Below are positions 22,359-48,965 of a stretch of DNA of 64,000 bases, piece after piece. Within the stretch, counting starts at the first letter, position 1; the number at the start of each line of letters is the position of its first letter. Under the pieces are notes generated by a model. It was not told the origin of the DNA and searched no databases. It was given only the letters and a program-made list of their open reading frames with translations. Both the position numbers and the translations under genes were made by a program. The DNA lies in NCBI GenBank assembly GCA_964408485.1, contig CAYOZJ010000001.1, positions 28,366 to 92,365 of the forward strand, written 5' to 3'. The stretch comes from an uncultured Gammaproteobacteria bacterium (GTDB lineage Bacteria; Patescibacteriota; Microgenomatia; Levybacterales; UBA12049).

Positions 22359-22360
22359 GG

Positions 22361-23389
22361 TCAGTCGCGCATTGCAAGCCCAGCAGCAATTGCATACTCC
22401 GGAGCATTATCAATAATATCTTTTGGCACCTCCTGCGGGACAAGAAGCTTCCATGGATTGATTATTGCTGTCTCAACATTCGTATTTGCTGTAAAATAGG
22501 TTGCAAGACCAGGAAGCTTAGCCGATCCTCCAGCTAAAATAATTTGTTTAATTGGATCATCAGCATATTTTGTATTATAAAAAGCCAATGCCTTTCTGAC
22601 TTCAGTGAGAATACTGGAAAGAATTGGCTCGGTTACTTTACCAATTTTTCCACCTAATGCGCTATCTGCAAGCCCATATGCTTTCTTGTACTCCTCAGCT
22701 TGCTGCATAGCAAAACCTAAATCCGCTGCTATTGCCCGAGAAATTGCCACCCCTCCTGTTGCAAGAGAAAAGGTAAAGACCAAAACACCATTCTTAATAA
22801 TTGCCAACGATGTACTCATTGCGCCAATATTGACAATAAGTGTTGCAGGAAAATGGTCATCGGTAATAACAGCACGTGTTAGGGAAATAATCTCTGTCTC
22901 CACAGCATTAAGGGTAAGTCCTGCGATACCCAAAATTTTTTCATATCTTTCAATAAGTCCTGTTGGTGCACCAACAAGCAAAACCTGCATAAGTGCGCCT
23001 GCTTCTTTTGTTGTCGGGCGAGAAAGCACTTTATAATCAAGGGTTATGGTTGTTAACGGAACAGGAATATATTGCTCTGCCTCCCAATAAATAGCTGATG
23101 CCAACTCTTTATCAGAAAGTGTTGGTATTTCTATAACTTTTGTATAAACCTGATTTTCAGGAAGAGCGACAGTAACATACCTTGTAGAGATTTTTGCTTC
23201 ACTGACTAAGGTCCGTATTGCTTTTGCCATTTCCTCTTGATCAAGAGGGGATTCTGACATAATTCCCCTTTGAGGAGCGGGCATAACAAGCGCAGACGAC
23301 AAGAAAAAACCATTGGTGTCTTTTGCAAGCCAAACTGCTTTTATTGCATGCGTACCGATATCAAGACCGAATGCTTTTTGTTTTGTCAT
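22361..23389 (-). CDS. pilM: type IV pilus assembly ATPase-like protein PilM
   Basis: Actin-like fold (FGLDIGTHAIKAV...). 4-nt overlaps with neighbours indicate an operon. Confidence 0.85.
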   Translation of the reverse strand: MTKQKAFGLDIGTHAIKAVWLAKDTNGFFLSSALVMPAPQRGIMSESPLDQEEMAKAIRTLVSEAKISTRYVTVALPENQVYTKVIEIPTLSDKELASAIYWEAEQYIPVPLTTITLDYKVLSRPTTKEAGALMQVLLVGAPTGLIERYEKILGIAGLTLNAVETEIISLTRAVITDDHFPATLIVNIGAMSTSLAIIKNGVLVFTFSLATGGVAISRAIAADLGFAMQQAEEYKKAYGLADSALGGKIGKVTEPILSSILTEVRKALAFYNTKYADDPIKQIILAGGSAKLPGLATYFTANTNVETAIINPWKLLVPQEVPKDIIDNAPEYAIAAGLAMRD

Positions 23390-24258
23390 TTTGGTGAAAA
23401 AATTGAAAAGAAAAATTCTGAAGGCACACTATCGTATCCCTGAAAGAAGCTTATTTTTCTAACAGTTTGCGTATCGCTTCCTCCTGCCGTACCAGTCGAG
23501 GTAATAATTTTTCCTTGAATAGGTAACCCTGCACCTTTTATGCCAATTGTCCCTGCTTTGTATAAAGGAATTACTCGCGCAAGAAGACCGCTTGTCACAT
23601 CTATTTGCATACGGTAGTTAAATGTCGCACTTCCATTTATTCCATCAACAACAAATGCTCCTGCTGCAGAGGTAGGACACGATCCTCCAGCCCCAACAGC
23701 ACAGAATGAATTAACAGAGCGTCTTGTTGCACACTGGTCAAATGCATACTTTTTAAGCGTTGGGCTAAGCCGTGTACCAGAAATGACTAATACTTCCATT
23801 GCAGGATCACTACATCCATCGGTATTTGTTCCCCAATGAACAGTAAGTGTTCCATTCCAGGCTGTTTGGAAAAGCTGAGAAGGGGTATCTGTGTGAGGGG
23901 AAAGCCATACATCGGTCCCATCATCTTGAAATACAGGATTTCCATTATTAAGGAGAAATTGACTTCCATCGATAAGAGAAATGTCCACATTGCTAATTTG
24001 TGAATTATTTTTATCATGAAGTGATACATCAGAGAGAATAGCCGCACCATTCGTGTCGCCTAATTTTACAGCCTGTTCAACACCAGCTTCTGCTGCAGAA
24101 AATGCAGCCTGCGATGCAGCTTCATCTGTTGAATTACGAAGATTGGTAATACTCCGGGAAGCAAGAGACAATCCAACGGTTAAAACAATCACCATAACAA
24201 GTACGACAATAAGAAGTGCTTGGCCCTTTTCTGATAATCTCTGGGCTTTCTTATCCAT
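23386..24258 (-). CDS. PilX-N-domain minor pilin-like protein
   Basis: N-terminus KGQALLIVVLVMVIVLTVGLSLASRS resembles the PilX N-domain family rather than a class III signal. Confidence 0.5.
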   Translation of the reverse strand: MDKKAQRLSEKGQALLIVVLVMVIVLTVGLSLASRSITNLRNSTDEAASQAAFSAAEAGVEQAVKLGDTNGAAILSDVSLHDKNNSQISNVDISLIDGSQFLLNNGNPVFQDDGTDVWLSPHTDTPSQLFQTAWNGTLTVHWGTNTDGCSDPAMEVLVISGTRLSPTLKKYAFDQCATRRSVNSFCAVGAGGSCPTSAAGAFVVDGINGSATFNYRMQIDVTSGLLARVIPLYKAGTIGIKGAGLPIQGKIITSTGTAGGSDTQTVRKISFFQGYDSVPSEFFFSIFSPK

Positions 24259-24369: not shown

Positions 24370-24963
24370 CTACCTATTTATATTTCGTATACCAATTGAT
24401 GTCTGGAAAACAACAGCGCTTTGAGAAGCAAGTTGCTCTGCAAACGTACTGCTTGATGATTGTTGCAGCGAAAAGTTTATTAAAATAACTGGTAAGTCAG
24501 AATTGCTTTCTTGAGAACAAGTGAATGAACATGATTTCAATGAAACCTGTGATGTATCCAGCAGACTTGCACCATTTGATGATATTGTTGAACTTGTACA
24601 CGCGTAGGTTATTTGCTGATTATCAGGCGTAAGAAGAGAAATAGAATTTGCCGTTACCGGTGGACTGCAGGGAAAAGGAGTCACCAAACCTCTCGCATCC
24701 CGAATAGTTTTAGCCATTTGTGAAAGAGTATAATTTCCATTATTTTGCACAAGTGTAACAATATCTGTTTTATGGGATGTTCTAAATGTTGTTACGAGAA
24801 TACTAAATACGATCGATCCAACGACAATAAAAATTGCAATAACGGCAAGCATTTCAACAAGAGTAAACCCACGCGAAGAGCATAGGGCGAAGGGTCTAGG
24901 GCACAGAATGTCCTTATTCTTTTTAACTCTATGCTCTGTGCTATATGCTCTATGCTTTTTCAT
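24370..24963 (-). CDS. prepilin-type N-terminal cleavage/methylation domain protein (pseudopilin)
   Basis: RGFTLVEMLAVIAIFIVVG class III signal motif. Confidence 0.7.
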   Translation of the reverse strand: MKKHRAYSTEHRVKKNKDILCPRPFALCSSRGFTLVEMLAVIAIFIVVGSIVFSILVTTFRTSHKTDIVTLVQNNGNYTLSQMAKTIRDARGLVTPFPCSPPVTANSISLLTPDNQQITYACTSSTISSNGASLLDTSQVSLKSCSFTCSQESNSDLPVILINFSLQQSSSSTFAEQLASQSAVVFQTSIGIRNINR

Positions 24964-25508
24964 GGCGTTGGAAAAACAGTGAAATCAGAAAAACATGTAG
25001 ACAGTGTTACAGAGTGACAAAAAGGATTTAATGTGTCTTGGCATTTTGGATCATACCATGATGTCCTAACAGTTATCTTAACGTTTGCTGATAGCGCATT
25101 TACTTGACCATTTGGCGTAGGACTTACATTACAATCAGCAGAATCATGCTCGACAACAACTTCCCGTACAAATTTATCAACATTTTGACCACAACTTGTG
25201 GTTTTCACCCAACATTGTGCGTTATTACTATCAAGATCAGAGCAGGCTTTTGCCAAACAATATGTATCGTCTGGTAATAATTCTGCCGAGATTGATGCAA
25301 TATTTTCATTGCGCATATCACGAATCAGCTCAATTCCAGCTTGTGTATATTGTGTTGCAATATTTTGGTCTCTCGCAAAGTCACTATTATTTAACGCACT
25401 AAGTGATGCGCTAACAATTGCCCCAATAATAACAACTGCTGCCGTGAGCGCCACTAACACTTCAATAAGTGTCTGTCCTTTCTCATTTGAAATTTTAAAT
25501 TTCATCAC
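24960..25508 (-). CDS. prepilin-type pseudopilin
   Basis: KGQTLIEVLVALTAAVVIIG N-terminal motif. Start overlaps the upstream gene by 4 nt. Confidence 0.65.
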   Translation of the reverse strand: MMKFKISNEKGQTLIEVLVALTAAVVIIGAIVSASLSALNNSDFARDQNIATQYTQAGIELIRDMRNENIASISAELLPDDTYCLAKACSDLDSNNAQCWVKTTSCGQNVDKFVREVVVEHDSADCNVSPTPNGQVNALSANVKITVRTSWYDPKCQDTLNPFCHSVTLSTCFSDFTVFPTP

Positions 25509-26164
25509 TGTATTACTCCTGTTGCAGAAACAGTTGCAATCTTAGTAAACCCATATCCGGTTATACCAATCTGGGGCGTTGCACCTGACGCATTTGTTGT
25601 CACTGCACCAGTAACCGATGAGAAGAAGAAATAGGTTGCTTTTGTTTTACTTGATGTATCAATAGTCACACCCGGATCCTGAATTTTTTTCCCAAGACAA
25701 GTCTGCGTTATTCTTCCTGACCCATCTGAATTCCCATATACTGCTTGTAACTCATAGGTGTTGGTGTTGGTATTACACTGCGCAGATAAACAAAGTGAGC
25801 TAAATGAGCAACAGGCAACTACTTGGTATCCTTCTAATTCGTACCCCTGACCAGTAAATCCATTTGCAAAACAAGTAGTATCGCGAAGTTGGGAAAGCGC
25901 TCGGGATCTGGCAGTAAAAAGGGTTGTCTTAAACTCTTTCATTGCAGTGTCTACCTGCTGAGATCTGCTGTAGCTTACAAATGAGGCAATACCAACAAGG
26001 GAAAGAATTACCATAACAGAAAAAACAATAATAAGCTCTATGAGAGTAAAACCACGCTCATGCTTTGCATGAGAATTTCCAATTTCTAATTTCCAATTTC
26101 TAACAGAAAGTGTTACGGTGTTATTTTTAGAAGAATTTGAAATTTGACATTTGAAATTTGACAT
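25505..26164 (-). CDS. prepilin-type pseudopilin with long leader
   Basis: ERGFTLIELIIVFSVMVIL motif. A ~45-aa leader is encoded by a low-complexity GAAATTTGACATTT tandem repeat. Confidence 0.65.
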   Translation of the reverse strand: MSNFKCQISNSSKNNTVTLSVRNWKLEIGNSHAKHERGFTLIELIIVFSVMVILSLVGIASFVSYSRSQQVDTAMKEFKTTLFTARSRALSQLRDTTCFANGFTGQGYELEGYQVVACCSFSSLCLSAQCNTNTNTYELQAVYGNSDGSGRITQTCLGKKIQDPGVTIDTSSKTKATYFFFSSVTGAVTTNASGATPQIGITGYGFTKIATVSATGVIQ

Positions 26165-26173
26165 TTGAAATTT

Positions 26174-26740
26174 TTATGGGTTATTTTTTGTGTAGTATAC
26201 GCCTGAGGTACATGCACTATCTCCACCTGCAAACGAAGACGTTGAGTCTGTATCTGCTGAATTTTCAAGACATGCAGCAAGAGTATAGGTAGTACCTGTT
26301 GTATCGTAGTAATAACTTCCTACATGGTAATACGTATTACCCAGTGGGTCGCAGGGAATTTTCTGCATATAGGTTGACCCTGAGTAGGTAAAACTAGATG
26401 GAGTAGGGCAGGCAGCACTATTGAGCCTATTTGTCCCACCTTCTGGAGGATAAGTACCAGTATCAGATCTGTATAACTCAAGCGCCGATTGGATTTGTCT
26501 AACGTCAGATTTTCTTTGTGCATCTCTTGCACGCTGTCTAATACCAATAAAATTGGTCATAAGAAGCGTTGAAAGAATACCAATGATCGCAATAACAATA
26601 AGAAGTTCAATAAGAGTAAAGCCAGCGTTGCTGGAAGTTCCAAATCCCAATTTCCAAGAAACAATTAAATTCCAATACCTCAAATTCCACATTGTTTGTA
26701 TCTTGTTTCTTGTTTCTTGTTTCTTGTTCATACAGATCAA
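26174..26740 (-). CDS. type IV major pilin-like protein (paralog 1)
   Basis: NAGFTLIELLIVIAIIGIL followed by ARD..RKSD..QIQSALELYRSDTGTYP, the T4a pilin / GspG-like fold signature. 45-aa leader. Confidence 0.8.
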   Translation of the reverse strand: MICMNKKQETRNKIQTMWNLRYWNLIVSWKLGFGTSSNAGFTLIELLIVIAIIGILSTLLMTNFIGIRQRARDAQRKSDVRQIQSALELYRSDTGTYPPEGGTNRLNSAACPTPSSFTYSGSTYMQKIPCDPLGNTYYHVGSYYYDTTGTTYTLAACLENSADTDSTSSFAGGDSACTSGVYYTKNNP

Positions 26741-26772
26741 TGGTAAATGGTAAATAATAAATCGTCAATGGG

Positions 26773-27416
26773 CTAGGGTGTTGTGTTAGGACTACTAACA
26801 CCATAGTTGCAAGGGTGGTGTTTGCCTGACGCTCCACAATCAACTGCTGCTGGAACGTTACCACATGTGCAGTACGTGAGACTTTCCGGATTATTAATAC
26901 AATTAGAGACCGTGGCTTTGCAAGTTTGTGTGTCATTTGGTCCTTGTTCAATTGACGTATAGAGATAGTATGACTGAGGAGATCCTCCTGGGGCATAGTA
27001 CACATACGTTCTACTAGAATCCGGATCTTTCGGCACAAGATCCATGTATGGCGACCAACCGCCTGATGCTCCCCATCCAAGACTGACACCATTAAAATCT
27101 GTTATGGTGTATGACGAACTGCTTTTTGGATAATTACCATGATCTTGATAATATTGCTCTAATACTCTTTGAATTTGTGCTAAATCAGACTTACGCTCGC
27201 CATCTCGCGCTTTTCTAAATTGCGCAAGGGGATTAAGGGCTGCAAGAGCAAAAACAGCAAGAATTGCTAAGATTCCAATAACGATAATCAATTCTATAAG
27301 AGTAAAGCCAGCGTTGCTGGAAGTTCCAAATCCCAATTTCCAAGAAACAATTAAATTCCAATACCTCAAATTCCAAATTGTTTGTATCTTGTTTCTTGTG
27401 TCTTGTGTCTTCGTCA
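26773..27416 (-). CDS. type IV major pilin-like protein (paralog 2)
   Basis: Leader plus N-terminal helix nearly identical at DNA level to paralog 1. C-terminal domain divergent and Cys-containing. Start placed at MTKTQDTRNK. Confidence 0.8.
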
Positions 27417-27418
27417 TA

Positions 27419-28213
27419 TTAATTAAATGCACAACTTTGACTGCAGTGCTGATCACAATAACAGTGGATATCTCCACCATAGTCTGTACACTGCGTCTTT
27501 GGTGCAATACTATTACATCTATTATCTCCTGTGCATCCATAAAACTGGTCACCAGGGCATGCAAGCGGCGTAGGAGTTGGTGTTATAGTCGGACCACCAC
27601 TGCCACCAGTAACAGTTGGAACTGTATCGCCTTGATTAATAACGTAACTGGCAACTTGGCTACAATCAACACTTCCTGAAATAGTACAGTAATTATAGTT
27701 ATTGGTTCTATACCCATTTGGCACACATGATGTTCGCTGTGCAAGAGGACAAGCATTACTTGGGACAGACGAACTCCGCAGGGCTGAGTACAAGACGTTC
27801 CATTGAGGACAGCTACTCGTTGAGTCAGGCTCATATAAGTAACACTTATCCGAATCACTGCCACAATCAGGATCCTGAGGAACTTTTTCCATATACACAT
27901 GATTATGTACTTTCCAGATCACCCCAAAGGTCAAAGAAGTTGGGTAACATCCAGTATCATTAAAGTAGCTATCAAGTGCCCTTTGAATTTGTCCCAAATC
28001 ATGCTCTCTCTTTCCATCATTTGCTTTATTGTATTGAGCAAGGGGATTAAACGTAGTAATCAGTCCAACAAGAAGAATTCCTAAAATAGCCAAAACAACA
28101 ACTAGCTCAATAAGAGTAAAACCTGATTGATAATGAAACCAACTATACGACTGAGAAAGATTCTTCAAAAACCAAGAATTCTTACTGCGTATTTCCATAA
28201 AAAATCTCCCCAT
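27419..28213 (-). CDS. type IV pilin-like protein with Cys-rich C-terminal domain (paralog 3)
   Basis: QSGFTLIELVVVLAILGIL plus NDGKREHDLGQIQRALDSYFNDTGCYP. About 20 Cys in the C-terminal 120 aa. The start overlaps the pilD 3' end. Confidence 0.8.
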   Translation of the reverse strand: MGRFFMEIRSKNSWFLKNLSQSYSWFHYQSGFTLIELVVVLAILGILLVGLITTFNPLAQYNKANDGKREHDLGQIQRALDSYFNDTGCYPTSLTFGVIWKVHNHVYMEKVPQDPDCGSDSDKCYLYEPDSTSSCPQWNVLYSALRSSSVPSNACPLAQRTSCVPNGYRTNNYNYCTISGSVDCSQVASYVINQGDTVPTVTGGSGGPTITPTPTPLACPGDQFYGCTGDNRCNSIAPKTQCTDYGGDIHCYCDQHCSQSCAFN

Positions 28214-28935
28214 ATTAGTGCTAGTAATGCTCCGAGAAAAAGGAAAGGTCCAAAAGCAATTGTGCTTCCTTTAAATTTCTTTTTCCCTTCTAAAATGAGT
28301 ATGACGCCGCATATACCACCTGTCAAGAAAGCTATATAGTATGCAACAACAATATATGGAAATCCAAGAAGAAATCCTAAAATTGCAACAAGTTTTACAT
28401 CTCCAAACCCCATCCCCCTGCCTTTAGAAAAAAGAAAAATAAGAAAAAGCGGTAAACTAGCCATAATAGCTACAACTAATCGCAAAGGAATCGTTGTGGG
28501 ATCGACAAGGAAAACAGCACACACAACAAGAATTCCAAACACAATAAGCAATGCATCCGACAAGATATGATACTTGATATCCATAATCGCAAGAGCAATC
28601 CCTAGAGAAAACAGTAACGCACTAATTGAATACATACCGAGATGAACCATATCGGTAGGCCACTGAAAAAGAAAAATCCCAATAAAAGCGATGCCAGTGA
28701 GAAGTTCTATGAGAGGGTATTGAAAAGAAAGCTTTTTATGACAATACCTACATTTTCCTCTCAGGAAGGCAAAGGACACAATTGGAATGAGATCAAACGC
28801 AGAAAGAGTATGATGACAAAAATCACAATGTGACCGACCAAAAAGTACTGATTTATTTGCAGGTATTCTATCAATCAAAACATTAAGAAACGAACCCATA
28901 CATAATCCAAAAATAAATAAAAAAAATATTGCCAT
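28165..28935 (-). CDS. pilD: prepilin peptidase (A24 family)
   Basis: N-terminal CxxC...CxxC zinc-binding cytoplasmic domain and polytopic membrane domain (GMGFGDVKL region). Confidence 0.9.
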   Translation of the reverse strand: MAIFFLFIFGLCMGSFLNVLIDRIPANKSVLFGRSHCDFCHHTLSAFDLIPIVSFAFLRGKCRYCHKKLSFQYPLIELLTGIAFIGIFLFQWPTDMVHLGMYSISALLFSLGIALAIMDIKYHILSDALLIVFGILVVCAVFLVDPTTIPLRLVVAIMASLPLFLIFLFSKGRGMGFGDVKLVAILGFLLGFPYIVVAYYIAFLTGGICGVILILEGKKKFKGSTIAFGPFLFLGALLALIWGDFLWKYAVRILGF

Positions 28936-28998: not shown

Positions 28999-30153
28999 TT
29001 ATGCTACCCAATAATTAAGACTATGCATCACAAGAAAAAGTCCTTGTAATAGTAAGCTTATGTAGAGATATGGAAAAGTAATTGTTTCATATTTTTTTTC
29101 ATATGACATAATCGATAAACATACAAATAAAGGAAAAATAATAACCAAATATCTTGTGTATGACATAAAACTACCACCCAAGACGGGCAACAATCCAAAG
29201 CAAAGACTATAAACAAAATATACTGCAGACACTCTTTTTCTCATAAAGAAAAGGGATACAACAAAGGAGAAAAAAAACAGTCTATCAAGCAGGGAATCAG
29301 TAAATCCATGAATATGCAATGGAAAAGTAAACAATGCCTTAAGAAAAAAGAGAGGATTAAAAAGAGAAAAAAATGAATAATGAGAAACAAAATTTTGCTG
29401 TGCGCTAAACTGTGCAAACAAGCTTCCCGCTGTAATATAATAGATGATCATTGCAAGAATAAGCCCAAAAATGGGAAGAAAAAGAAAGAGTGTCTTTTTT
29501 TGTAATACTGTTTTCCCAATAACATGCATTTCGTCATAAAAAGAATGACGAGAATATTCAAGAATATAGGAAAAAAAGAAAGGAATAAGTATCGCAACTC
29601 CAATCAAACGCGTCAACGGAAGGAAGAATGCAACAAGAGATGCTCTGACAAGTTTTTTTTCTTGGAGAAAAAGAAAGAATAAAATAACAAGCAGGAAAAA
29701 CAGACTTTCTGTGTAAATAAGAGAGAAATAAAAACTTGTTGGAAAAGCAAGCAGCAGCAACAGGCTTCTTTTTGCAATTTTTTCGTTGTATTGATTCTTA
29801 ATCAAGAGATAAAACAAGTAAAAGCCGATACAAGAGAAAACATTTGCAAGTACCATCCCTGCAACAAAACTATTTCTTACTATCAACGTTGTGAGAAATA
29901 TAATAAAAGGCAAAAGAGGAGAGAATGCATTAGATTCATCATTTTTATGATATCCTTTCTCGCTTATATAAAGATAGTGCTGTGCATCCCATGTTTTATA
30001 TGAAGTGACAAGTGAAATTTGTTCGCGTATTGGATACGTAAAATTTGCAAAATATGTTGGTGCATTAAATGGTAAAAGAGAAAAACAAAGAAAAATAAAA
30101 ACAACAATACAAATTTTTACTGACAGAATAATAAAAATTATATCTCGTTTCAT
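28999..30153 (-). CDS. polytopic membrane protein, putative GT-C-fold glycosyltransferase
   Basis: About 11 predicted TM segments and a WDAQHYLYISEKGY motif in the first extracytoplasmic loop, reminiscent of GT-C mannosyltransferases. Functional assignment is inferential. Confidence 0.45.
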   Translation of the reverse strand: MKRDIIFIILSVKICIVVFIFLCFSLLPFNAPTYFANFTYPIREQISLVTSYKTWDAQHYLYISEKGYHKNDESNAFSPLLPFIIFLTTLIVRNSFVAGMVLANVFSCIGFYLFYLLIKNQYNEKIAKRSLLLLLAFPTSFYFSLIYTESLFFLLVILFFLFLQEKKLVRASLVAFFLPLTRLIGVAILIPFFFSYILEYSRHSFYDEMHVIGKTVLQKKTLFLFLPIFGLILAMIIYYITAGSLFAQFSAQQNFVSHYSFFSLFNPLFFLKALFTFPLHIHGFTDSLLDRLFFFSFVVSLFFMRKRVSAVYFVYSLCFGLLPVLGGSFMSYTRYLVIIFPLFVCLSIMSYEKKYETITFPYLYISLLLQGLFLVMHSLNYWVA

Positions 30154-30162
30154 ACAATAGGT

Positions 30163-32196
30163 TTATTTACTTGATACTCCAAGCGTATCTTTTGACGCTG
30201 ACAATGCCTTTTGAAAGTCTTTGCGATAGAGTTGGGTATAGGCGATACTTACCTCACTTGCTCTTTTTTTATCTTTAAAACAATTCAGATACATAGTATA
30301 TAAGAGAAAGTATGGTGTTTCTTGATACTGGTTGAGTGCTAGTGATTGAGAAAGATTATCTGCTGCATAGCCACATTTTCCAGCAATTCCAGAATATAAA
30401 ACTCCCAACGCGCTATATGCTTTATCATTATTCGGCTCAATATCGCGGGCTTTTTTATAGAAAGAAAGCGCGCTATCTGTATCTTGATAGCGTGTATAGA
30501 TAAAGGTTCCAGTAGCAATAAGTGAATTACTATACGCATTGGGGATTTCCGCAATTGTTAGGCTATGAGCAACAGGATTTTTTCTTTCTTCAATTGTTGG
30601 AGCATGAAGCGTTGACCAAATAGAACCAACTTGCATTTCGTAACTTTTTTTGTCGGGGAGACGATCTACATCTTGATACATTTCAAAAACAAGTCCGAAA
30701 GGTACCCATATAAGTTTTTCGCCTGTTTTGGGTTGAAATTGAGTTGTTGAAAAAATTCGCCGTGTGCTACTCATCGAACGGACTATCTTTATTAGTGCTT
30801 CTGTTCTATTTTTCGAGCTAACTCCTTTAAGACCATCTGCAATACTATTGTGCGTTACAGGTGTTGCCCCTATATTATAAAGGAGAATGTCTGGCCGGTC
30901 ATGAAGCGCGTAATGCACATACCATGTATTAAAAATTTGTGTATCCCCAGATATAAGAAGTACAGCATTACGCGGCAATGGATCGAGAAAGTCTTTCGCG
31001 TAGGTATCGCCAATCATAAGGGATGCAAGATTTGTCTTAGGGGTATTATAGACAAAAAGCATGAGCGGAATGAAAAGAAAAAGACAGGTAAAAAGAACTT
31101 CATAATGACGTTTGGGTAAAAAGCTTGCAAGACGCACAGTAAATACATAAAGGCCAATTCCAAAAGGAATAAGAAAAATCACCGTTGAAAGTAAGGTAAA
31201 TCGTTCGTATGCACCAATAATAAAACTGCTTGTTAAAGGAAATCCTGCATACATCAAAAAAACTGGACCAGAAAGCAACCACGCAAGAAATAGTGACGTG
31301 AAGAGTATTTTATCCTTTTTGAAAATGTGCCAAAACCCAAGAAAAGTAAGTACTATCGTTGGAATTGTTAACTGAAATAAAAGATACTGTACATAAAGCC
31401 ATAAGGTAACAAGGCGTTGCGCAAAGGAAGGCGTATCAAAAATACCAGCTTGAAAGGTACCATAATCTTTCCGGAGAATTAAATGAAAAAAGGAGGGAAT
31501 ATCATGAACTGAATCCCAATTAATAATTGGGTTATGGGCAGATGCAATAAAAATATATAAGAAAGGTGTTAATCCAAGAACAAATGATAAAAGCAAAAGA
31601 AGAATCAATAACATATTCTTTTTTATCTGAAGAAATAATTGTTTCCCAATTAATAGAAAAAGTGATGGAACGATAAGAATAATTGTTGAATGATGCGTAG
31701 AGGCAAGTCCGAGGCAAAAAAAGAAAAGATACAATACGGGTCCTTTTTTACTTTGACGAAAAAGAAGCGCCAAAAGAAATAGCACAAGCGCAAAGAATGT
31801 ATTTAACATAAATACTTCAGCAACTTCCGCATAAAACCAATAGAGAAAAGAGAATCCAAGAATGAGTGATGCAACAACACTGTTTAATGAATTTTTTGTA
31901 AGTTGCTTGGTAAAAAGATAAAAACATACAACGCCACCTGCTCCCGCAAATGCAGAAATTAACCCAACGGCAAATGCAGGAGAAATACGAGCAAGAATGG
32001 AATGAGTTAGTAAAAATCCTAGAAAGGTGAATAACGGATATCCTGAAGGGTGAGCAACTCCTCCAACGCTTGCTGCTGTTACTAAGTCGCCAACATCTCC
32101 TCCATAAATACTTCTCGAGAGATGACTAACGTAAAGCAGCAAAAATCCACTAAACAAAAATGTGGGCAGGATAATTTTCTTAACTAAAGAGAGCAT
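30163..32196 (-). CDS. DUF2723/TMEM260-like GT-C membrane protein with C-terminal TPR repeats
   Basis: N-terminal polytopic domain with GGDVGDL...HPSGYPLF loop, then a soluble C-terminal TPR region (YKKARDIEPNNDKAYSALGVLY...). Confidence 0.55.
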   Translation of the reverse strand: MLSLVKKIILPTFLFSGFLLLYVSHLSRSIYGGDVGDLVTAASVGGVAHPSGYPLFTFLGFLLTHSILARISPAFAVGLISAFAGAGGVVCFYLFTKQLTKNSLNSVVASLILGFSFLYWFYAEVAEVFMLNTFFALVLFLLALLFRQSKKGPVLYLFFFCLGLASTHHSTIILIVPSLFLLIGKQLFLQIKKNMLLILLLLLSFVLGLTPFLYIFIASAHNPIINWDSVHDIPSFFHLILRKDYGTFQAGIFDTPSFAQRLVTLWLYVQYLLFQLTIPTIVLTFLGFWHIFKKDKILFTSLFLAWLLSGPVFLMYAGFPLTSSFIIGAYERFTLLSTVIFLIPFGIGLYVFTVRLASFLPKRHYEVLFTCLFLFIPLMLFVYNTPKTNLASLMIGDTYAKDFLDPLPRNAVLLISGDTQIFNTWYVHYALHDRPDILLYNIGATPVTHNSIADGLKGVSSKNRTEALIKIVRSMSSTRRIFSTTQFQPKTGEKLIWVPFGLVFEMYQDVDRLPDKKSYEMQVGSIWSTLHAPTIEERKNPVAHSLTIAEIPNAYSNSLIATGTFIYTRYQDTDSALSFYKKARDIEPNNDKAYSALGVLYSGIAGKCGYAADNLSQSLALNQYQETPYFLLYTMYLNCFKDKKRASEVSIAYTQLYRKDFQKALSASKDTLGVSSK

Positions 32197-32202
32197 GAGA
32201 GC

Positions 32203-32763
32203 CTATTGCGAGCACCAATAGCAGGCAGTTGATGTTGGATTACAATCTCCAGTTGGTGAGTGTGGCGAACCATCTCTATTAAATTTAGCATTTGGATCCG
32301 ACCTTTGAGCTTTTGATTGTGGTTGGAAGCAGGCGGTAATATCGGTATCTGTTCCACTGACAATGATACTAGTTAATACACTCGTTACTGTCGTGAAGGC
32401 AGCCTTAATCTCTCCATCTGACACAAGACTACTCAAGCAAGTTACCAAATCAGGATTAAGAGACAATGACGTTGGATTATTATTGCCATTACACCCATTA
32501 TGCCATGGCATACTGTTATGAGTTGTGTAGTAGCGAATATTTGCATCAATAAATTCAACCGCAGTATTTTTAGTGTTCGCATCATTTGCTTTCTTAAGCT
32601 GCTCGAATGGATCAATAGTTGCAACAAGCGCTGCAGCCAAAACACCTAAAATACCAATAACAACAAGGAGTTCGATAAGGGTAAAACCCTTTTGTGAAGA
32701 AATATGAAAACTCCTTAGGAGTTTGGACAGTTTTTTCATGAATCTATACTTTAAGTTAAACAT
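32203..32763 (-). CDS. type IV pilin-like protein
   Basis: KGFTLIELLVVIGILGVLAAALVATI class III signal and N-terminal helix. Start may be the second Met (MKKLSKLL). Confidence 0.75.
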   Translation of the reverse strand: MFNLKYRFMKKLSKLLRSFHISSQKGFTLIELLVVIGILGVLAAALVATIDPFEQLKKANDANTKNTAVEFIDANIRYYTTHNSMPWHNGCNGNNNPTSLSLNPDLVTCLSSLVSDGEIKAAFTTVTSVLTSIIVSGTDTDITACFQPQSKAQRSDPNAKFNRDGSPHSPTGDCNPTSTACYWCSQ

Positions 32764-32885
32764 ACTTTTTTTAACCTTGTCAAGCCCCGTGTTTAGTCTG
32801 TCAATCCCACCACGTAATTACTCTCTTACCTTTCTCTCGCTCCTTTTTGATTTTCTTTTATTTTTAAGAGTAAAAAATAAGTATA

Positions 32886-33397
32886 TGCGTCACCATGATA
32901 CACTTTTTACATATAATAAAAGCAGAGAAAGCAGTTCACCTAACCAACAAGGTCCTCCTTCCACAAATGAAAAGCAAAAACTCCACCATCTCATGAATAG
33001 ATCTCAAACACCACTGCTAGAAGTTACTACGGTTTTTCCTTTTGACTTGTTTCCTGACACGATTGTTATTGATGCAACCAAAGTACATATTATTGATAGG
33101 GAATTTTTCTTCACTGAAGAGATTCACAGTATCCCTATTAAAAATATCGTTGATATTTATGTCGATACAGGACCATTTTTTGCAACTCTTCGAATACTTC
33201 CTCAATTGATATTTCAAAACCAAATTACACAAATTCCAAAACTATGGAAATCAGATGCGATGAAAGCAAGAGATGTCATCCAAGGACTTATTCTTGCAAC
33301 AAAAGAAAATATTAATGTGACAAATCTGCCTGATGAGGTAGATACAGATCAACTGCAGCACGACTTACAATCACTGGGACGACCTCAGCCTCATTGA
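32886..33397 (+). CDS. hypothetical protein (about 170 aa), only plus-strand gene inside the pilus locus
   Basis: ATG at 32886. The ORF-track 5' extension overlaps the pilin on the opposite strand and was discarded. No family recognised. Confidence 0.35.
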
Positions 33398-34593
33398 ATA
33401 CTTGAAGTAAGGTTATAAATTGGAGTAATGATTGAAATAATCAGAAAAGATACGCCAATACCCAACACGATCATAATAAATGGTTCCATTGCCGTTGTTA
33501 ATGTTTTGACTGTCCCATCAACTTCACGCTCAAAGTACTCACTGACTTTAAGGAGCGATTCATCTAATTTTCCTGTTTGCTCGCCAATTTTTACCATTTG
33601 GACAAGAATGGGAGGAAAAATATCAAATGCATTCATAGCGTCCCCAATAGTAACGCCTTTTTCAACGCGCTTGGAAATCTCCTGAATTGCACTTCGATAG
33701 ATAACATTTCCTGTCGTATCAGCTGATTCATTTAATGACTGGACAACAAGCGTCCCTGCACTTATAAGAAGACCAAATGTACGGGTAAATTCAGCCATAA
33801 TGGTCTTTTTGATGAGATTACCAAAAACAGGAAGACGAAGCTTAATTCCATCGGTAATCAGTTTTCCTGAATCAGTTTTTCGCCATCTGTTATATGCAAC
33901 GCCAAACAAAATAACCATGCCCAAGATTAACGGCCAAAATCCAATGGTGAAATCAGAAACACTTACCATAAACTGTGTCGTGGGAGGCAAGGGAATATTG
34001 AGATTTTGGTACAAAACAGTTAATTGAGGAATAACAAAAATCATCATAACAAACATAACAACAACCATAAGGACAACAACAATAACAGGATAGGTAAGAG
34101 CAGACTTAATTGTCGCTTGCAATTTTTGTTGCTTCTCCAAGTTATCAGCAAGCCGCAAAAGTACTTTATCTAAAAATCCAGAAGATTCTGCAGCACGAAT
34201 AAGAGAAATGTAAATCGGATTAAAAATCTTCGGATACTTGGCAATTGCATCGGCAAATGTTTTTCCTTCTTGGACATCTCCTATAAGGCTATTTACCACT
34301 TGCTTCATCGCAGGATTCTGAACTTGTTCTTTTAAAATATTGAGCGCCTGCATAAGTGTTAGACCGGAGGAGAGAATGGATGACAATTGTCTTGTAAATA
34401 AAACCAAATCTTCTGTTGAAGATTTTTGAAAAAGTTGGGAAAAAGAAAAACTATTCGTTGCAATTTGCCTCACAGAAAGTGGCAACATACCTTTCCCTCT
34501 TAGAAATCCCACAGCCTCATTAACATCTCTTGCTTCCAAAACACCCTGGGTTATTTTGCCATCCTTGCTGGTCGCGCGGTACGTTATTTTCAT
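33391..34593 (-). CDS. pilC: type IV pilus platform protein PilC (GspF family)
   Basis: Two GspF-type repeats and three TM segments. Confidence 0.9.
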   Translation of the reverse strand: MKITYRATSKDGKITQGVLEARDVNEAVGFLRGKGMLPLSVRQIATNSFSFSQLFQKSSTEDLVLFTRQLSSILSSGLTLMQALNILKEQVQNPAMKQVVNSLIGDVQEGKTFADAIAKYPKIFNPIYISLIRAAESSGFLDKVLLRLADNLEKQQKLQATIKSALTYPVIVVVLMVVVMFVMMIFVIPQLTVLYQNLNIPLPPTTQFMVSVSDFTIGFWPLILGMVILFGVAYNRWRKTDSGKLITDGIKLRLPVFGNLIKKTIMAEFTRTFGLLISAGTLVVQSLNESADTTGNVIYRSAIQEISKRVEKGVTIGDAMNAFDIFPPILVQMVKIGEQTGKLDESLLKVSEYFEREVDGTVKTLTTAMEPFIMIVLGIGVSFLIISIITPIYNLTSSIQ

Positions 34594-34595
34594 GA

Positions 34596-35675
34596 TTATC
34601 CAACCATTCGAAGTAATTCGTCAGGATGCAAGCTGTAGGATTTTGCTGTATCAAGACTAATTGCTCCTGACAAGACGAGTTGAGAAAGAGAATTGTCTAA
34701 AGCAATCATGCCAACATCTTGTGACGTTTGAATAATTGAGTCTATAAGATGCGTTTTGCCATCTCGTACGTTACTTGCAACTGCTGGTGTCCCAACAAGT
34801 ATCTCAACTGCGGGAATTCGTCCTCCAGAGATTTGAGGAATAAGCCTTTGCGAAATAATGCCCTTTAACGTAAAGGAAAGTTGTGTACGAATTTGAGACT
34901 GTTGGTGCTCTGGAAAACTATCAATTATTCTATCAATTGACTGTGATGCAGAATTTGTATGCAAGGTAGATAAAACCAAATGACCAGTCTCAGCAATTGT
35001 CATTGCAGCAGCCATTGTGTCCGGATCTCGCATTTCTCCAATTAAGACAACGTCTGGATCTTCACGAAGAGCACTTCTGAGAGCCATTGTCCATGAATGA
35101 GTATCTGTCTTCATTTCGCGCTGAGAAATGATACTTTTCCCATTTGGATAAACATATTCAATTGGGTCTTCAATAGTTAATATATGACTACTTCTCGTCA
35201 TATTAATTTCATTAATCATTGAGGCAAGCGTTGTTGATTTTCCTTGTCCTGTTGGGCCAGTTACCAAAATAAATCCTTGACGTAGATTAGCGAAGTTATG
35301 ACAAATTCTTGGTAAATGTAAATCTTCGATTGTTTTGATTGTTTTGGGCAAAAAACGGAAAGCAGCACATAATTGACCTCTTTGGTAATATGCATTCACA
35401 CGAAATCTTCCTAGGTCTCCATAAATTCCTCCACCATATGGCATGGAAAAATCAAGCTCTTTATTTGCTACTAATAAATCTTTTTGCTCAGCAGAGAGCA
35501 AAGTAAAAAGCATACTCGTCACACTTTCCGAACTTAACGCTGCAATCGATGCAACATAGGAAAGGGCACCATCAACACGAATTGCTGGAGGAAGTCCAGG
35601 CAATAAATGCAAATCTGATGCATTACTTTTAACGACTAATTCTAATAATTGTTGTAAATCCATAAGTTCGATCAT
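34596..35675 (-). CDS. pilT: twitching-motility (retraction) ATPase PilT
   Basis: Walker A GPTGQGKSTT, Asp box and His box of PilT/GspE ATPases. Length of about 360 aa is typical of PilT. Confidence 0.9.
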   Translation of the reverse strand: MIELMDLQQLLELVVKSNASDLHLLPGLPPAIRVDGALSYVASIAALSSESVTSMLFTLLSAEQKDLLVANKELDFSMPYGGGIYGDLGRFRVNAYYQRGQLCAAFRFLPKTIKTIEDLHLPRICHNFANLRQGFILVTGPTGQGKSTTLASMINEINMTRSSHILTIEDPIEYVYPNGKSIISQREMKTDTHSWTMALRSALREDPDVVLIGEMRDPDTMAAAMTIAETGHLVLSTLHTNSASQSIDRIIDSFPEHQQSQIRTQLSFTLKGIISQRLIPQISGGRIPAVEILVGTPAVASNVRDGKTHLIDSIIQTSQDVGMIALDNSLSQLVLSGAISLDTAKSYSLHPDELLRMVG

Positions 35676-35752: not shown

Positions 35753-37594
35753 TCATTCCTGCGCAACGCGCAAAACCTCTTCAATTGTTGTTACTCCCGC
35801 GAGTGCTTTAAGATATCCATCTTGTTTCATTGTTATCATTCCTTCTGCAGTTGCTTGCTTTACGATTGTTTCCGCATCTGCTCGCTGCAAAATAAGATGA
35901 GCAATTTTTTCGGTTACTGTAAGGACTTCAAAAATACCAACTCGGCCAATGTATCCTGAGTCACCGCATTGATTACATCCTTTTCCTTTATAGAGCTTTA
36001 CCTCGCCAGTTGGCATAATCGGTCCCAGATTTGTTTTAATCTCCTCAACAAGCTGAGCAGCTGGAATATAGGATTCCTTACAGGTATCACAAATTTTTCT
36101 AACAATTCTTTGTCCCATAACGGCAGTAATTGTTGAAGCAAGTAAAAATGTCTCTGCGCCTAAATCAATAAGACGAGGGAGAGCACCCGATGCATCGGAG
36201 GTATGAAGGGTGGAGAAGACCAAATGGCCAGTGAGTGCCGCTTGGATAGCCAAATCCGTTGTCTCACCGTCTCGGATTTCTCCAACAAGAATAATATTTG
36301 GATCCTGACGAAGAAAACTACGTAATCCGTCAGCAAACGTTAATCCGACAGCTGGATTAATTTGTACTTGATTTACTCCCTGTATTTCATATTCGACCGG
36401 ATCCTCAAGTGACACAATATTTACGCGCGTTGTATTAAGTTTTGCAAGCACAGCATACAGCGTCGTTGTTTTTCCTGATCCCGTAGGTCCGCAAACAAGA
36501 ATAATGCCATGGGGCCGAAGAATTGCTGTCTCCAACGCCTTAAGAGACAATCCGTTAAGTCCGAGTTCTGGCAAAGTTGGGATACCACCTGATTTTCGAA
36601 GAAGTCTCATCACAATTTTTTCACCGTGTACTGTTGGAAGGACAGAAATACGAAGATCAACTTCTTGATTACCAACTTTAAAATTAAACCTGCCGTCTTG
36701 TGGCATGCGATGCTCATCGATTTTCATTTCCGACAAAACCTTAATACGGGAAATAACTGCTTCTTGTACTGTTTTAGGAAGACTCAACCGGTCATACAAA
36801 ATACCATCAATACGGTATCTCACCCGTACCCTGTCATCCATTGGTTCTATGTGCACATCAGATGCGCGGGAATTTACTGCATACTCAAGAATCGTTGCCA
36901 CAATTTTTGCAATTGGCGCTTCTTTAATAATTTGACCAATCTGGCTACTATCAACTGTTTTAGTTGTATTTTCTTGCTTTAGTGCTTCTGTTTCTTTAAC
37001 AGCTCTCCCAACTTCTCCAACTAATTCTTGTCTGTACTGCGCATTAATTGCATTCTTCACGTCTGTTGGTGTTGAGGCAAAAGTTTTTATGGTAAGTCCT
37101 GTTTTTTGTTGAATAAAGGAAAGTGCATCCAAATCTGCTGGGTTACTCATAGCAACCGAGAGAATTTTCGTCTTATCATCGTAAAGAAATGGAATCAGCT
37201 GAAACCGCTCAACAACGGCACGCGGAATAAAACTTAATGCTTCTGGAGAAAAGGATGCTGTTGCTAAATTAATGTAGGGGACACCAAGCATTTGCGCTTT
37301 GGCCTCAGCAATTTTTGCCTCATCCACTATATGCATTTCATCTAATACTTCGTCCGTTGATCTATTCGTTGTTGCGCTTTTTAATTTTATATCGTCATAT
37401 TGCTCTTTGGTAAGCAAATTTTCTCTGAATAATAAATCAGTAACACTCTCTCCAATAGTAGCTGAGACAGGAGGAGCAGGTTGTACCACTACTGAAGGAT
37501 TAAGAACAGGAGCAGCACCTCCGGCAGAAGAGGGAACAACTGGCACATTTGTTCCAACAGGTTGTGCCTGCGGAACGACTTGCTGATCGGGCAT
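35753..37594 (-). CDS. pilB: type IV pilus assembly ATPase PilB (GspE family)
   Basis: Walker A GPTGSGKTTT, N-terminal GspE_N domain, tetracysteine zinc motif CDTC...CNQC. Confidence 0.9.
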   Translation of the reverse strand: MPDQQVVPQAQPVGTNVPVVPSSAGGAAPVLNPSVVVQPAPPVSATIGESVTDLLFRENLLTKEQYDDIKLKSATTNRSTDEVLDEMHIVDEAKIAEAKAQMLGVPYINLATASFSPEALSFIPRAVVERFQLIPFLYDDKTKILSVAMSNPADLDALSFIQQKTGLTIKTFASTPTDVKNAINAQYRQELVGEVGRAVKETEALKQENTTKTVDSSQIGQIIKEAPIAKIVATILEYAVNSRASDVHIEPMDDRVRVRYRIDGILYDRLSLPKTVQEAVISRIKVLSEMKIDEHRMPQDGRFNFKVGNQEVDLRISVLPTVHGEKIVMRLLRKSGGIPTLPELGLNGLSLKALETAILRPHGIILVCGPTGSGKTTTLYAVLAKLNTTRVNIVSLEDPVEYEIQGVNQVQINPAVGLTFADGLRSFLRQDPNIILVGEIRDGETTDLAIQAALTGHLVFSTLHTSDASGALPRLIDLGAETFLLASTITAVMGQRIVRKICDTCKESYIPAAQLVEEIKTNLGPIMPTGEVKLYKGKGCNQCGDSGYIGRVGIFEVLTVTEKIAHLILQRADAETIVKQATAEGMITMKQDGYLKALAGVTTIEEVLRVAQE

Positions 37595-47428: not shown

Positions 47429-47471
47429 AAGAATCTTGTCAATAAGTGGGTTTTCCCATATACTGTCTAAT

Positions 47472-48020: not shown

Positions 48021-48085
48021 CCTCAAAGCGTAAGAATTTGTCTTATAGTATTGACATTTCTGAAAGAAATGTTTATAATGCTCAT

Positions 48086-48964: not shown

Positions 48965-48965
48965 T

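Follow-up and report, generated by a model that had tools for sequence, protein, structure and literature searches.

A TMEM260/DUF2723-family GT-C glycosyltransferase gene linked to pilin genes in Patescibacteria, encoding a candidate pilin O-glycosyltransferase

The pilus cluster and its two GT-C genes

The window analyzed in this study, meaning the whole 64-kb stretch of DNA, contains a type IV pilus gene cluster in which two genes for GT-C membrane proteins are embedded. All genes of the cluster lie on the minus strand and are listed here from the upstream end:

35753-37594, minus strand: PilB (T2SSE with MshEN)
34596-35675, minus strand: PilT (T2SSE)
33391-34593, minus strand: PilC (T2SSF)
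32203-32763, minus strand: pilin with N_methyl motif and GFTLIEL, putative major pilin and proposed acceptor
30163-32196, minus strand: TMEM260/DUF2723-family GT-C glycosyltransferase gene, 677 aa, ATG start
28999-30153, minus strand: second GT-C membrane protein, 384 aa, PIG-V/Gpi18- and PMT_2-related, with an invariant D56 in loop 1
28165-28935, minus strand: prepilin peptidase PilD (PF06750 and PF01478)
24370-28213, minus strand: six further pilin-like genes (27419-28213, 26773-27564, 26174-26740, 25505-26164, 24960-25508 and 24370-24963), with N_methyl and T2SSG matches and the motif G[FQ]TL[IV]E
23386-24258, minus strand: PilX-like protein, 290 aa, weak PilX_N match
22361-23389, minus strand: PilM, strong PilM_2 match
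21825-22358, minus strand: PilN, weak PilN match
20989-21828, minus strand: PilO-like protein with a Ser/Thr/Pro-rich tail, no Pfam match, named from position and conservation

The putative major pilin gene ends 6 nt upstream of the DUF2723 gene, and the second GT-C gene follows 9 nt downstream of it. The true start of this pilin is probably M9 at position 32739 because the public protein is 178 aa long. The gene order of the block 20989-24258 is kept in more than 25 loci. A scan for promoters and terminators between 27.5 and 34 kb returned fewer promoter-like sites than shuffled sequence and no intergenic terminator.

The initial annotation had placed a 677-aa open reading frame (ORF) at 30163-32196, between pilin genes. 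Both points were confirmed: the coordinates are exact, one pilin gene is immediately upstream, and more pilin genes start two genes downstream. The two motifs assigned to its first loop were located at residues 31-38 (YGGDVGDL) and 49-56 (HPSGYPLF), and the annotated start is credible because homologues align across 94-100% of the length. In the Pfam scan, residues 34-183 matched the TMEM260-like family PF11028 (6.2e-20, 72.1 bits; cut-off 24.2), which was also present in all 120 homologues among the matches listed. PF11028 was the only glycosyltransferase family reported for the protein and was accompanied by a sub-threshold TPR_11 match; the same scan found no PF02366, PF13231 or MIR domain, and NCBIfam gave no match. 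Human TMEM260 (9rql/9rqm/9rqn) was recovered by phmmer with an E value of 3.5e-34, in an alignment of query residues 15-440 with residues 33-463 of the 9rql chain that covers the membrane core completely and runs into the luminal domain. Family membership is directly established, and the profile assignment is to DUF2723/TMEM260, as initially proposed, and to no transporter family. Public annotation already uses the label "DUF2723 domain-containing protein". Within the searchable literature, the 2023 TMEM260 paper was the only one to use the term DUF2723, and TMEM260 homologues were nowhere connected with pilins, consistent with the earlier statement that a pilin role is not established for bacterial DUF2723 proteins.

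The neighboring protein at 28999-30153, initially described as GT-C-like, proved to be so according to both its homologues and its predicted fold. The window protein matched only PMT_2 in Pfam, with 18.1 bits under a cut-off of 26.1, and 11 of 25 homologues match PF04188 (PIG-V; best E 2.7e-9) and 14 of 25 match PF13231 (PMT_2). Its AF2 model has a pLDDT of 91.7, and all significant Foldseek matches (E<=0.001) are GT-C enzymes; a sequence search of solved structures returned nothing matching. In 17 loci a member of this family separates the DUF2723 gene from pilD, and about one third of the related loci contain one. An apparent fusion of the DUF2723 protein and the second GT-C protein at one locus (L015, 1019-aa ORF) was discarded as evidence: a stretch of N in the contig accounts for it.

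Fold and functional residues of the 677-aa protein

The AF2 model of the 677-aa protein (pLDDT 85.9, pTM 0.84) has its 11 membrane helices within approximately the first 385 residues, followed by a beta/alpha domain at about residues 395-545 and seven helices at residues 550-672. The corresponding features of the gene are as follows:

31042-32196, minus strand: transmembrane GT-C core of 11 helices, residues 1-385
32095-32097, minus strand: codon of D34, counterpart of human D52
32050-32052, minus strand: codon of H49, counterpart of human H67
31471-31473, minus strand: codon of R242, counterpart of human R264
31462-31464, minus strand: codon of Y245, counterpart of human Y267
31201-31203, minus strand: codon of R332, counterpart of human R355
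30562-31014, minus strand: extracytoplasmic Rossmann-like domain, residues ~395-545, carrying D418
30943-30945, minus strand: codon of D418, aligned with human D441
30181-30549, minus strand: C-terminal TPR-like helical repeats, residues ~550-672, with invariant C608 and C639

The beta strands of the Rossmann-like domain are modelled at residues 412-415, 438-441, 481-483, 495-500 and 503-508. With the N-terminus inside and 11 helices, the predicted topology agrees with that of TMEM260 in exposing loop 1 and the C-terminal domains on the outer side. The initial annotation had ascribed the TMEM260 architecture and a GT-C fold to this protein, and the model bears out both, with an 11-helix GT-C core followed by a Rossmann-like and then a TPR-like domain outside and with protein O-mannosyl- and oligosaccharyl-transferases as the best structural matches. 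We regard the fold, like the family, as directly established.

In human TMEM260, residues D52, H67, R264, Y267 and R355 bind the donor sugar and phosphate, D441 is the proposed catalytic base, and mutating any of these six residues abolishes or strongly reduces activity (bioRxiv 10.64898/2026.03.17.711096). D441 activates the peptide Thr and sits in a peptide-clasping domain, and the TPR domain alone suffices for peptide binding (bioRxiv 10.64898/2026.03.17.711096). All six residues are identical in the 677-aa protein, and their conservation is directly established: among 79 bacterial homologues, D34, H49 and R242 are each kept in 78, Y245 and R332 in 76, and D418 in all 79. The first five are invariant in alignment A1. 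D34 thus supplies the acidic first-loop residue whose lack, according to the initial annotation, would have spoken against the assignment. The C-terminal halves of the bacterial and human proteins do not align by phmmer, and the TPR-like region of alignment A1 contains no invariant Asn, the human Asn ladder for acceptor binding being N602, N638, N642 and N680.

Linkage to pilin genes across genomes

Among 54 loci of the Patescibacteria clade, a pilin ORF lies within 200 bp of the DUF2723 gene in 37 and within 3 kb in 45, and some pilus gene is present in the available flank of 50. At loci of other phyla, no pilin was found within 3 kb (0/26). The order PilB-PilT-PilC-pilin-DUF2723-[GT-C2]-PilD-pilins-PilM/N/O is kept down to 31% enzyme identity, and orthologues of the pilin at 32203-32763 adjoin the DUF2723 gene in 33 loci. 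This pilin family has 1011 homologues (protein search, E<=1e-10), and when contigs were looked up from the pilin, a PF11028 gene was directly downstream in eight of eight. The co-occurrence that had been proposed as a check is strong in both directions, from the enzyme (37/54) and from the pilin (8/8), and this two-way linkage is directly established. A metagenome scan seeded with the pilin alignment gave, among the matches listed, only N-terminal matches to unrelated pilins (generic FTLIELL).

DUF2723 genes of a second Patescibacteria clade are located next to a different pilus operon, at the end where its major pilin is encoded. Genes for GT2, GT4 and methyltransferase proteins lie alongside these second-clade loci, three of which contain phosphomannomutase, mannose-6-P isomerase and PGI/PMI genes.

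We compared pairwise distances of the enzyme and the globular domain of the pilin by a mirror-tree approach with partial Mantel correlation, taking PilB and PilC as the phylogeny proxy, a design in which false positives are likely among related sequences. The coefficient r was 0.42 for the C-terminal half of the enzyme, 0.38 for its N-terminal half and 0.15 for PilD. This correlation may lend weak support to enzyme-pilin pairing, weak because the N-terminal half, which is not expected to touch the acceptor, correlates almost as well.

We consider it reasonably likely that the product of 30163-32196 is a catalytically active member of the TMEM260/DUF2723 family of GT-C glycosyltransferases and works specifically for the type IV pilus. 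Gene adjacency is no proof of substrate pairing, and the clientele of the enzyme could be wider. It might be a general protein O-glycosyltransferase similar to actinobacterial Pmt or Neisseria PglL, with many secreted and surface clients including Ser/Thr/Pro-rich linkers, and would then owe its place in the pilus operon merely to the abundance of pilus clients. The homology and catalytic evidence would fit such an enzyme equally, Ser/Thr/Pro-rich segments are present in the PilO-like protein and, as a Thr/Pro-rich linker, in the pilin at 27419-28213, and the DUF2723 proteins of other phyla without pilus linkage indicate that pilus specificity is not a trait of the entire family. However, the gene stays directly behind one highly conserved pilin while enzyme identity falls from 63% to about 31%, every contig looked up from that pilin has the PF11028 gene, and the acceptor-binding C-terminal half is clade-specific, being kept within the pilus-linked clade and mostly unalignable in homologues of other phyla. 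Moreover, where genomes encode two paralogues (L026/L037 and L031/L059), each paralogue lies beside a different pilus operon. Given these patterns, a general enzyme appears unlikely.

Proposed function and comparison with known glycosyltransferases

For an enzyme dedicated to the pilus, the most likely function is that of a pilin O-glycosyltransferase dependent on a polyprenyl-phosphate-hexose, probably mannose. The residues, the fold and the gene linkage support the initial proposal of a candidate pilin O-glycosyl- or mannosyltransferase, within which three points are our inference: that the pilin is the acceptor, which sugar is transferred, and what the second enzyme does. Mannose is suggested indirectly, by the sugar-contacting residues, the PIG-V-like partner and the mannose-pathway genes at three second-clade loci.

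According to this proposal, a polyprenyl-monophosphate-hexose, most likely mannose, would be synthesized at the cytoplasmic side of the membrane and then flipped. The 11-helix core may hold this donor, with D34, H49, Y245 and R332 contacting the sugar and R242 the phosphate, and the extracytoplasmic TPR-like domain may grip an extended stretch of freshly translocated, membrane-anchored pilin. The Rossmann-like domain would set a Ser or Thr beside D418 as general base, and one hexose would be transferred with inversion. The pilin encoded 6 nt upstream would be the preferred substrate, and other pilins or Ser/Thr/Pro-rich pilus proteins may be modified too. Where present, the PIG-V-like GT-C protein encoded 9 nt downstream could attach a second sugar, again taken from a lipid donor of this type, and the prepilin peptidase and the PilB/C/M/N/O machinery would then process and assemble the glycosylated pilin. 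The neighbor has the GT-C fold and an invariant loop-1 Asp, and its homologues match PF04188, the family of PIG-V/Gpi18 (GPI mannosyltransferase II, GT76). PIG-V adds a second mannose from Dol-P-Man, which fits a neighbor extending a first mannose; but bacteria have no GPI anchor, and the acceptor of the neighbor must differ.

No genes for a polyprenyl-phosphate-sugar synthase or a flippase were found within the 64-kb window. Pfam searches covering 30 of the 34 ORFs that lie outside the pilus cluster and encode 130 aa or more found no GT2, flippase or mannose-pathway genes, the sole sugar-related match being a weak RmlC-like cupin. The human acceptor sequon P-x5-P-x3-G-P-x2-[GA]-G-G-x2-[TS] is absent from all ten pilus proteins in the window, and therefore acceptor recognition must differ from that of TMEM260. 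The absence of the sequon bears on substrate specificity and leaves the family membership of the 677-aa protein untouched.

An acceptor other than protein was also considered. In the manner of ArnT, Emb/Aft or teichoic-acid GT-C enzymes, the protein would transfer a sugar from polyprenyl-phosphate to a lipid or cell-wall polymer needed for the pilus to cross or anchor in the envelope. The invariance of the D441 equivalent, a base that in TMEM260 activates a peptide Thr, the retention of the TPR-like domain, whose human counterpart is sufficient for peptide binding, and best structural matches that are protein-modifying enzymes make this role improbable. That the protein is a non-catalytic pilus assembly factor, a scaffold or pilin chaperone acting through its TPR-like domain with a vestigial GT core, is very improbable, since donor-binding and catalytic residues are kept (76-79 of 79) across sequences just 30-60% identical, a pattern predicted only where selection acts on catalysis.

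A stronger form of the pilin O-glycosyltransferase reading, which we regard as rather unlikely, would make pilin O-mannosylation by two extracytoplasmic enzymes obligatory in pilus biogenesis and the ancestral job of the TMEM260 family. Polyprenyl-phosphate-mannose would be the only donor, the TMEM260-type enzyme starting the glycan and the PIG-V-type enzyme elongating it, both on a stretch of nascent pilin in extended conformation. In the globular domain the sole invariant hydroxyl residue is Ser124 (numbering of the mature protein, codon 32314-32316); this residue, or Thr54/Thr55, would be the candidate sites. Metazoans would later have taken the family for O-mannosylation of the plexin, MET and RON receptors. 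If this were true, the TMEM260 structure could be used to read bacterial acceptor rules.

None of the many bacterial DUF2723 proteins has an assigned function, and the conserved two-way link to one pilin would offer this branch a first substrate that can be put to the test. In Patescibacteria, ultra-small bacteria that mostly resist cultivation, type IV pili are believed to serve attachment to hosts and the uptake of DNA, and glycans coating the pilus would influence how hosts are recognized and how phages or immunity are evaded. Loss of human TMEM260 causes a congenital heart and kidney syndrome. With substrate-bound structures of human TMEM260 at hand, a bacterial enzyme and its substrate might offer the family a simple, tractable model system.

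Human TMEM260 (PDB 9RQL/9RQM/9RQN), a protein O-mannosyltransferase, has sequence homology, PF11028, the architecture and the six functional residues in common with the 677-aa protein. In contrast to it, the bacterial host lacks an ER, dolichol must be replaced by a bacterial polyprenol as lipid carrier, and the gene lies in a pilus operon, whose proteins lack the IPT-domain sequon of the human substrates.

Compared by description and motifs, the closest functional analogue appears to be TfpW of P. aeruginosa, a pilin D-arabinofuranosyltransferase (AAM52060.1) of 646 aa in which 11 transmembrane helices and a GT-C core are joined to a TPR domain, and which is encoded immediately 3' of pilA and glycosylates pilin from a polyprenyl-phosphate sugar. 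The 677-aa protein has the same layout, with a GT-C core, about 11 transmembrane helices, a C-terminal extracytoplasmic TPR domain and a gene directly downstream of the major pilin gene. Concerning the motifs, the DDX of TfpW loop 1 has no equivalent, residues 1-70 being free of DD and only 1 of 80 aligned sequences having it, and the loop-4 motif YX6PFX7P is absent from the protein and from all 80 aligned sequences (79 bacterial and the human fragment). The 64-kb window contains no genes for the biosynthesis of D-Araf (decaprenyl-phosphate-arabinose, DPA), and TfpW builds arabinofuranose oligomers. The initial annotation did not mention this known pilin-adjacent GT-C/TPR pilin glycosyltransferase, and because TfpW is already known, the concept of such an enzyme is less new than was implied.

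TfpO/PilO and PglL are membrane enzymes that likewise O-glycosylate type IV pilins at the periplasmic face, tfpO being directly downstream of pilA. They belong to an unrelated family and transfer preassembled undecaprenyl-diphosphate-linked oligosaccharides, and no such domain was found in the 677-aa protein; if the proposed function holds, it would represent a third enzyme family for pilin glycosylation, beside TfpO/PglL and TfpW. Unlike the PMT/POMT enzymes (GT39), including actinobacterial Pmt, the 677-aa protein has a Rossmann-like and TPR C-terminus and no MIR domain, and in TMEM260 the catalytic base sits in the soluble domain. The structural likeness to GT39 consists in the GT-C fold common to both.

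Family membership and genomic setting

The ORF at 30163-32196 (minus strand, ATG start) encodes a 677-aa protein, as the initial annotation had it, and is located within a complete type IV pilus gene cluster whose genes are all on the minus strand. The window outside this cluster carries housekeeping genes.

Genes of the type IV pilus cluster (coordinates, strand, product)
35753-37594, minus strand, PilB
34596-35675, minus strand, PilT
33391-34593, minus strand, PilC
32203-32763, minus strand, pilin (the upstream pilin)
30163-32196, minus strand, target, TMEM260/DUF2723 family
28999-30153, minus strand, 384-aa membrane protein (GT-C2)
28165-28935, minus strand, prepilin peptidase (PilD)
24370-28213, minus strand, six pilin-like genes
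cluster end at 20989, minus strand, PilX-like protein, then PilM, PilN, and a PilO-like protein

The target starts 6 nt after the pilin stop codon and ends 9 nt before the start of GT-C2, beyond which follow the prepilin peptidase and the six pilin-like genes; the position among pilin genes described earlier is thus confirmed. Residues 34-183 match the Pfam family PF11028 (TMEM260-like) with 72.1 bits against a cut-off of 24.2, in agreement with the family assigned in the initial annotation. A search of PDB sequences retrieved human TMEM260 (9rql, 9rqm, and 9rqn; E 3.5e-34), with an alignment over residues 15-440 that covers the whole membrane core and the beginning of the extracytoplasmic domain. 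All testable family features were found except the human-specific acceptor sequon, and the protein belongs to the TMEM260/DUF2723 family. Its nearest relatives are encoded in Patescibacteria MAGs labelled Levybacteria, Roizmanbacteria, Gottesmanbacteria, or Microgenomates, and are publicly annotated as "DUF2723 domain-containing protein". An AlphaFold2 model computed from 20 aligned sequences has high confidence (pLDDT 85.9, pTM 0.84). It contains eleven membrane helices up to approximately residue 385, the number originally proposed, then a beta/alpha domain, with seven more helices at 550-672.

According to a 2026 cryo-EM preprint (10.64898/2026.03.17.711096), D52 and H67 of the TMEM260 sugar-recognition motif, together with Y267 and R355, contact the mannose of Dol-P-Man, R264 binds phosphate, and D441 of the Rossmann-like domain serves as general base beside the acceptor threonine. 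Alanine mutants of D52, H67, R264, Y267, and D441 lost activity, and R355A kept about 20% (10.64898/2026.03.17.711096). In an alignment of 79 bacterial homologues with a human TMEM260 fragment, human D52, H67, R264, Y267, R355, and D441 correspond to D34, H49, R242, Y245, R332, and D418 of the target. The acidic residue sought in the first loop (D34) is retained in 78 of 79 bacterial homologues, as are H49 and R242 (78/79 each), Y245 in 76 (phenylalanine in the other three), R332 in 76, and D418 in all 79. Such invariance among sequences only 25-63% identical argues strongly for a functional enzyme.

Several other features of the window were observed. A 224-aa ORF (32723-33397, plus strand) without a Pfam match lies opposite to the cluster within the 627-bp pilC-pilin gap, a spacing of only ~30-40 nt in most related loci. 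Its C-terminal ~145 aa have homologues (36-47% identical) in loci L049, L004, and L006, likewise between pilC and pilin in L004, so that at least this part represents a real, small, conserved gene. Two adjacent pilin ORFs in 26174-27564 (minus strand) show what look like long N-terminal extensions (pilin motif at residues 86 and 40) and share the leader segment TRNKIQT(I/M)WNLRYWNLIVSWKLGFGTSSNAGFTLIEL, suggesting that the leader region was duplicated recently or that the starts were called too far upstream.

Linkage to pilin genes

Scanning a single genome for each GTDB species yielded 80 loci with DUF2723 homologues, in which ORFs were called, pilins were identified by the class III signal motif, and pilus machinery was identified by BLAST with window proteins. 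Within the Patescibacteria clade (54 loci), a pilin gene is present within 200 bp in 37 loci and within 3 kb in 45, PilB/C/D/T/M within 3 kb in 39, and any pilus gene in the flank in 50; three of the four loci without one have truncated flanks. The corresponding numbers for the 26 loci of other phyla (Elusimicrobia, Acidobacteria, Verrucomicrobia, Myxococcales, Chloroflexi, Firestonebacteria, and others) are 0, 0, 1, and 3, and no ORF with a pilin motif was found in 444 kb of their sequence. The gene order PilB-PilT-PilC-pilin-DUF2723-[GT-C2]-PilD-pilins-PilX-like-PilM-PilN-PilO is kept down to ~31% enzyme identity. In a rough neighbour-joining tree, used for grouping alone, the pilus-linked genes fall into a single Patescibacteria group and the other phyla are basal. 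Many MAG records titled "uncultured Gammaproteobacteria bacterium" (L005, L011, L013, and others) look like Patescibacteria by both gene content and protein identities, and these titles appear to be placeholders or wrong taxonomy.

The linkage also holds with the pilin as starting point. The upstream pilin is a highly conserved protein, with a mature N-terminus FTLIELLVVIGILG..ATIDPFEQLKKANDAN.KNTAVEF..ANIRYYTTHN.MPW and the further motifs DGE[IL]K, C[FY].P.SK, and CYWC, and has 1011 relatives at E<=1e-10. Among the matches listed, 33 relatives are on contigs of at least 10 kb, 22 of them apparently contigs with a known DUF2723 or GT-C2 match. Eight of the remaining 11 were looked up, and a PF11028 gene is directly downstream in all eight (0-20 nt past the stop codon or overlapping by a few bases); two of these genes end at a contig edge, one still annotated as PF11028 and the other reading YGGDVGD...HPSGYPLF. 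The enzyme therefore accompanies this pilin type in every examined case. With PilB+PilC as a proxy for phylogeny, pairwise distances of the enzyme still track those of the pilin globular domain (partial Mantel r: C-terminal half, 0.42; N-terminal half, 0.38; p ~2e-4 in each case; PilD, 0.15 for comparison); this gives weak support, since tests of this kind are permissive when sequences are related and the result does not distinguish the two halves.

A sub-clade of about a dozen Patescibacteria loci (L026-L036, L040, and L042) shows a second arrangement of the link between DUF2723 genes and major pilins. Here, the gene converges on another pilus operon at the end where the major pilin lies. This operon lacks PilT and runs from a response regulator through PilB, PilC, and minor pilins to a 155-aa pilin (in L042, a 158-aa pilin in three near-identical copies). 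Genes for GT2, GT4, a SAM-methyltransferase, and another PMT_2 GT-C lie in between, which places the DUF2723 gene inside a small group of glycosylation genes, and a response-regulator gene is almost always just 5' of it. Both kinds of locus occur in two genomes (L026 with L037, and L031 with L059).

The second GT-C protein

The protein at 28999-30153 alone gives only sub-threshold PMT_2 and NCBIfam matches. Because 11 of its 25 homologues match PF04188 (PIG-V mannosyltransferase) and 14 match PMT_2, its loop-1 Asp (D56, within TWDAQHY) is invariant, and all significant Foldseek matches (E<=0.001) of its model (pLDDT 91.7) are GT-C enzymes, it is a second GT-C, as the earlier description of a GT-C-like neighbour implied. 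In 17 of the loci retrieved, GT-C2 separates the target orthologue from pilD. In a Chloroflexi MAG (L070), a GT-C2 homologue and a DUF2723 gene lie on opposite strands, 1 bp apart, and there are no pilus genes close to them; cooperation of the two enzymes may therefore extend beyond the pilus context. An apparent 1019-aa DUF2723 + GT-C2 fusion (L015, 9950-13009) proved to be an artefact of a run of N translated as X.

Predicted function and related systems

Family membership, intact active-site residues, and the two-sided pilin linkage support the initial proposal of a pilin O-glycosyl/mannosyl-transferase as a hypothesis, and we consider it moderately probable that the target is a pilus-dedicated pilin O-glycosyltransferase. 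By analogy with TMEM260, its membrane core would bind a polyprenyl-monophosphate-hexose. Given the topology (N-terminus inside, 11 helices), the active site would be on the outer face, which pilins traverse as membrane-anchored precursors en route to assembly. Mannose is the best guess for the sugar, based on the conserved sugar-contacting residues, a partner from a Dol-P-Man-using family, and mannose-pathway genes beside some paralogues. In L027, L032, and L042, genes for a phosphomannomutase/phosphoglucomutase and a bifunctional PGI/PMI precede the DUF2723 gene by 0.4-2 kb on its upstream side, and L027 and L042 have a mannose-6-phosphate isomerase cupin in addition; these are hints in this direction. 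No donor-synthesis gene was found within the window.

The acceptor-binding half is conserved across the pilus-linked clade and mostly unalignable with homologues of other phyla, in line with an acceptor specific to the clade. None of the window's pilus proteins contains the human IPT sequon, and acceptor recognition rules therefore differ. Speculative candidate sites are Ser124 of the mature upstream pilin, the sole invariant hydroxyl residue of its globular part; Thr54/Thr55 at the end of its N-terminal helix; the Thr/Pro-rich segment (TVPTVTGGSGGPTITPTPTP linker) of the pilin at 27419-28213 (minus strand); and the Ser/Thr/Pro-rich tail (14 of 20 residues at 237-256) of the PilO-like protein (20989-21828, minus strand). 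Ser/Thr/Pro-rich tails and linkers are typical targets of bacterial O-glycosylation, and the latter two are possible additional substrates.

Compared by description and motifs, the closest system in mode of action is Pseudomonas aeruginosa TfpW, a GT-C of 646 aa that has 11 transmembrane helices plus a TPR domain in the periplasm. The TfpW gene immediately follows pilA, and the enzyme uses a polyprenyl-phosphate sugar to glycosylate the pilin. The two described TfpW motifs are missing from the target, and arabinose pathway genes are missing from the 64-kb window. Human TMEM260 shares the family; its TPR asparagine ladder could not be aligned with the target. PMT/GT39 enzymes differ in that the target has neither a PMT profile match nor a MIR domain, and TfpO/PglL belong to another family with another donor type.

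Neither the DUF2723 label nor the broad concept of a pilin-adjacent gene for a GT-C/TPR glycosyltransferase is new. In the searched literature, of which coverage is incomplete and an earlier mention elsewhere is possible, "DUF2723" occurs only in the 2023 TMEM260 study, which mentions solely "distant homologs in bacteria", and no report joins TMEM260 homologues with pilins; work on Saccharibacteria pili merely predicts possible O-glycosylation and names no enzyme. The new element is that, firmly and across a broad phylogenetic range, a bacterial TMEM260-family enzyme whose active site is intact is linked to a single conserved pilin, in many cases together with a second, PIG-V-like enzyme.

Elsewhere in the window (46313-49988), a weak RmlC-like cupin (47343-48020) lies between two ORFs of 371 and 321 aa without Pfam matches, and this group is followed by a XerC/D-type tyrosine recombinase (48966-49988).
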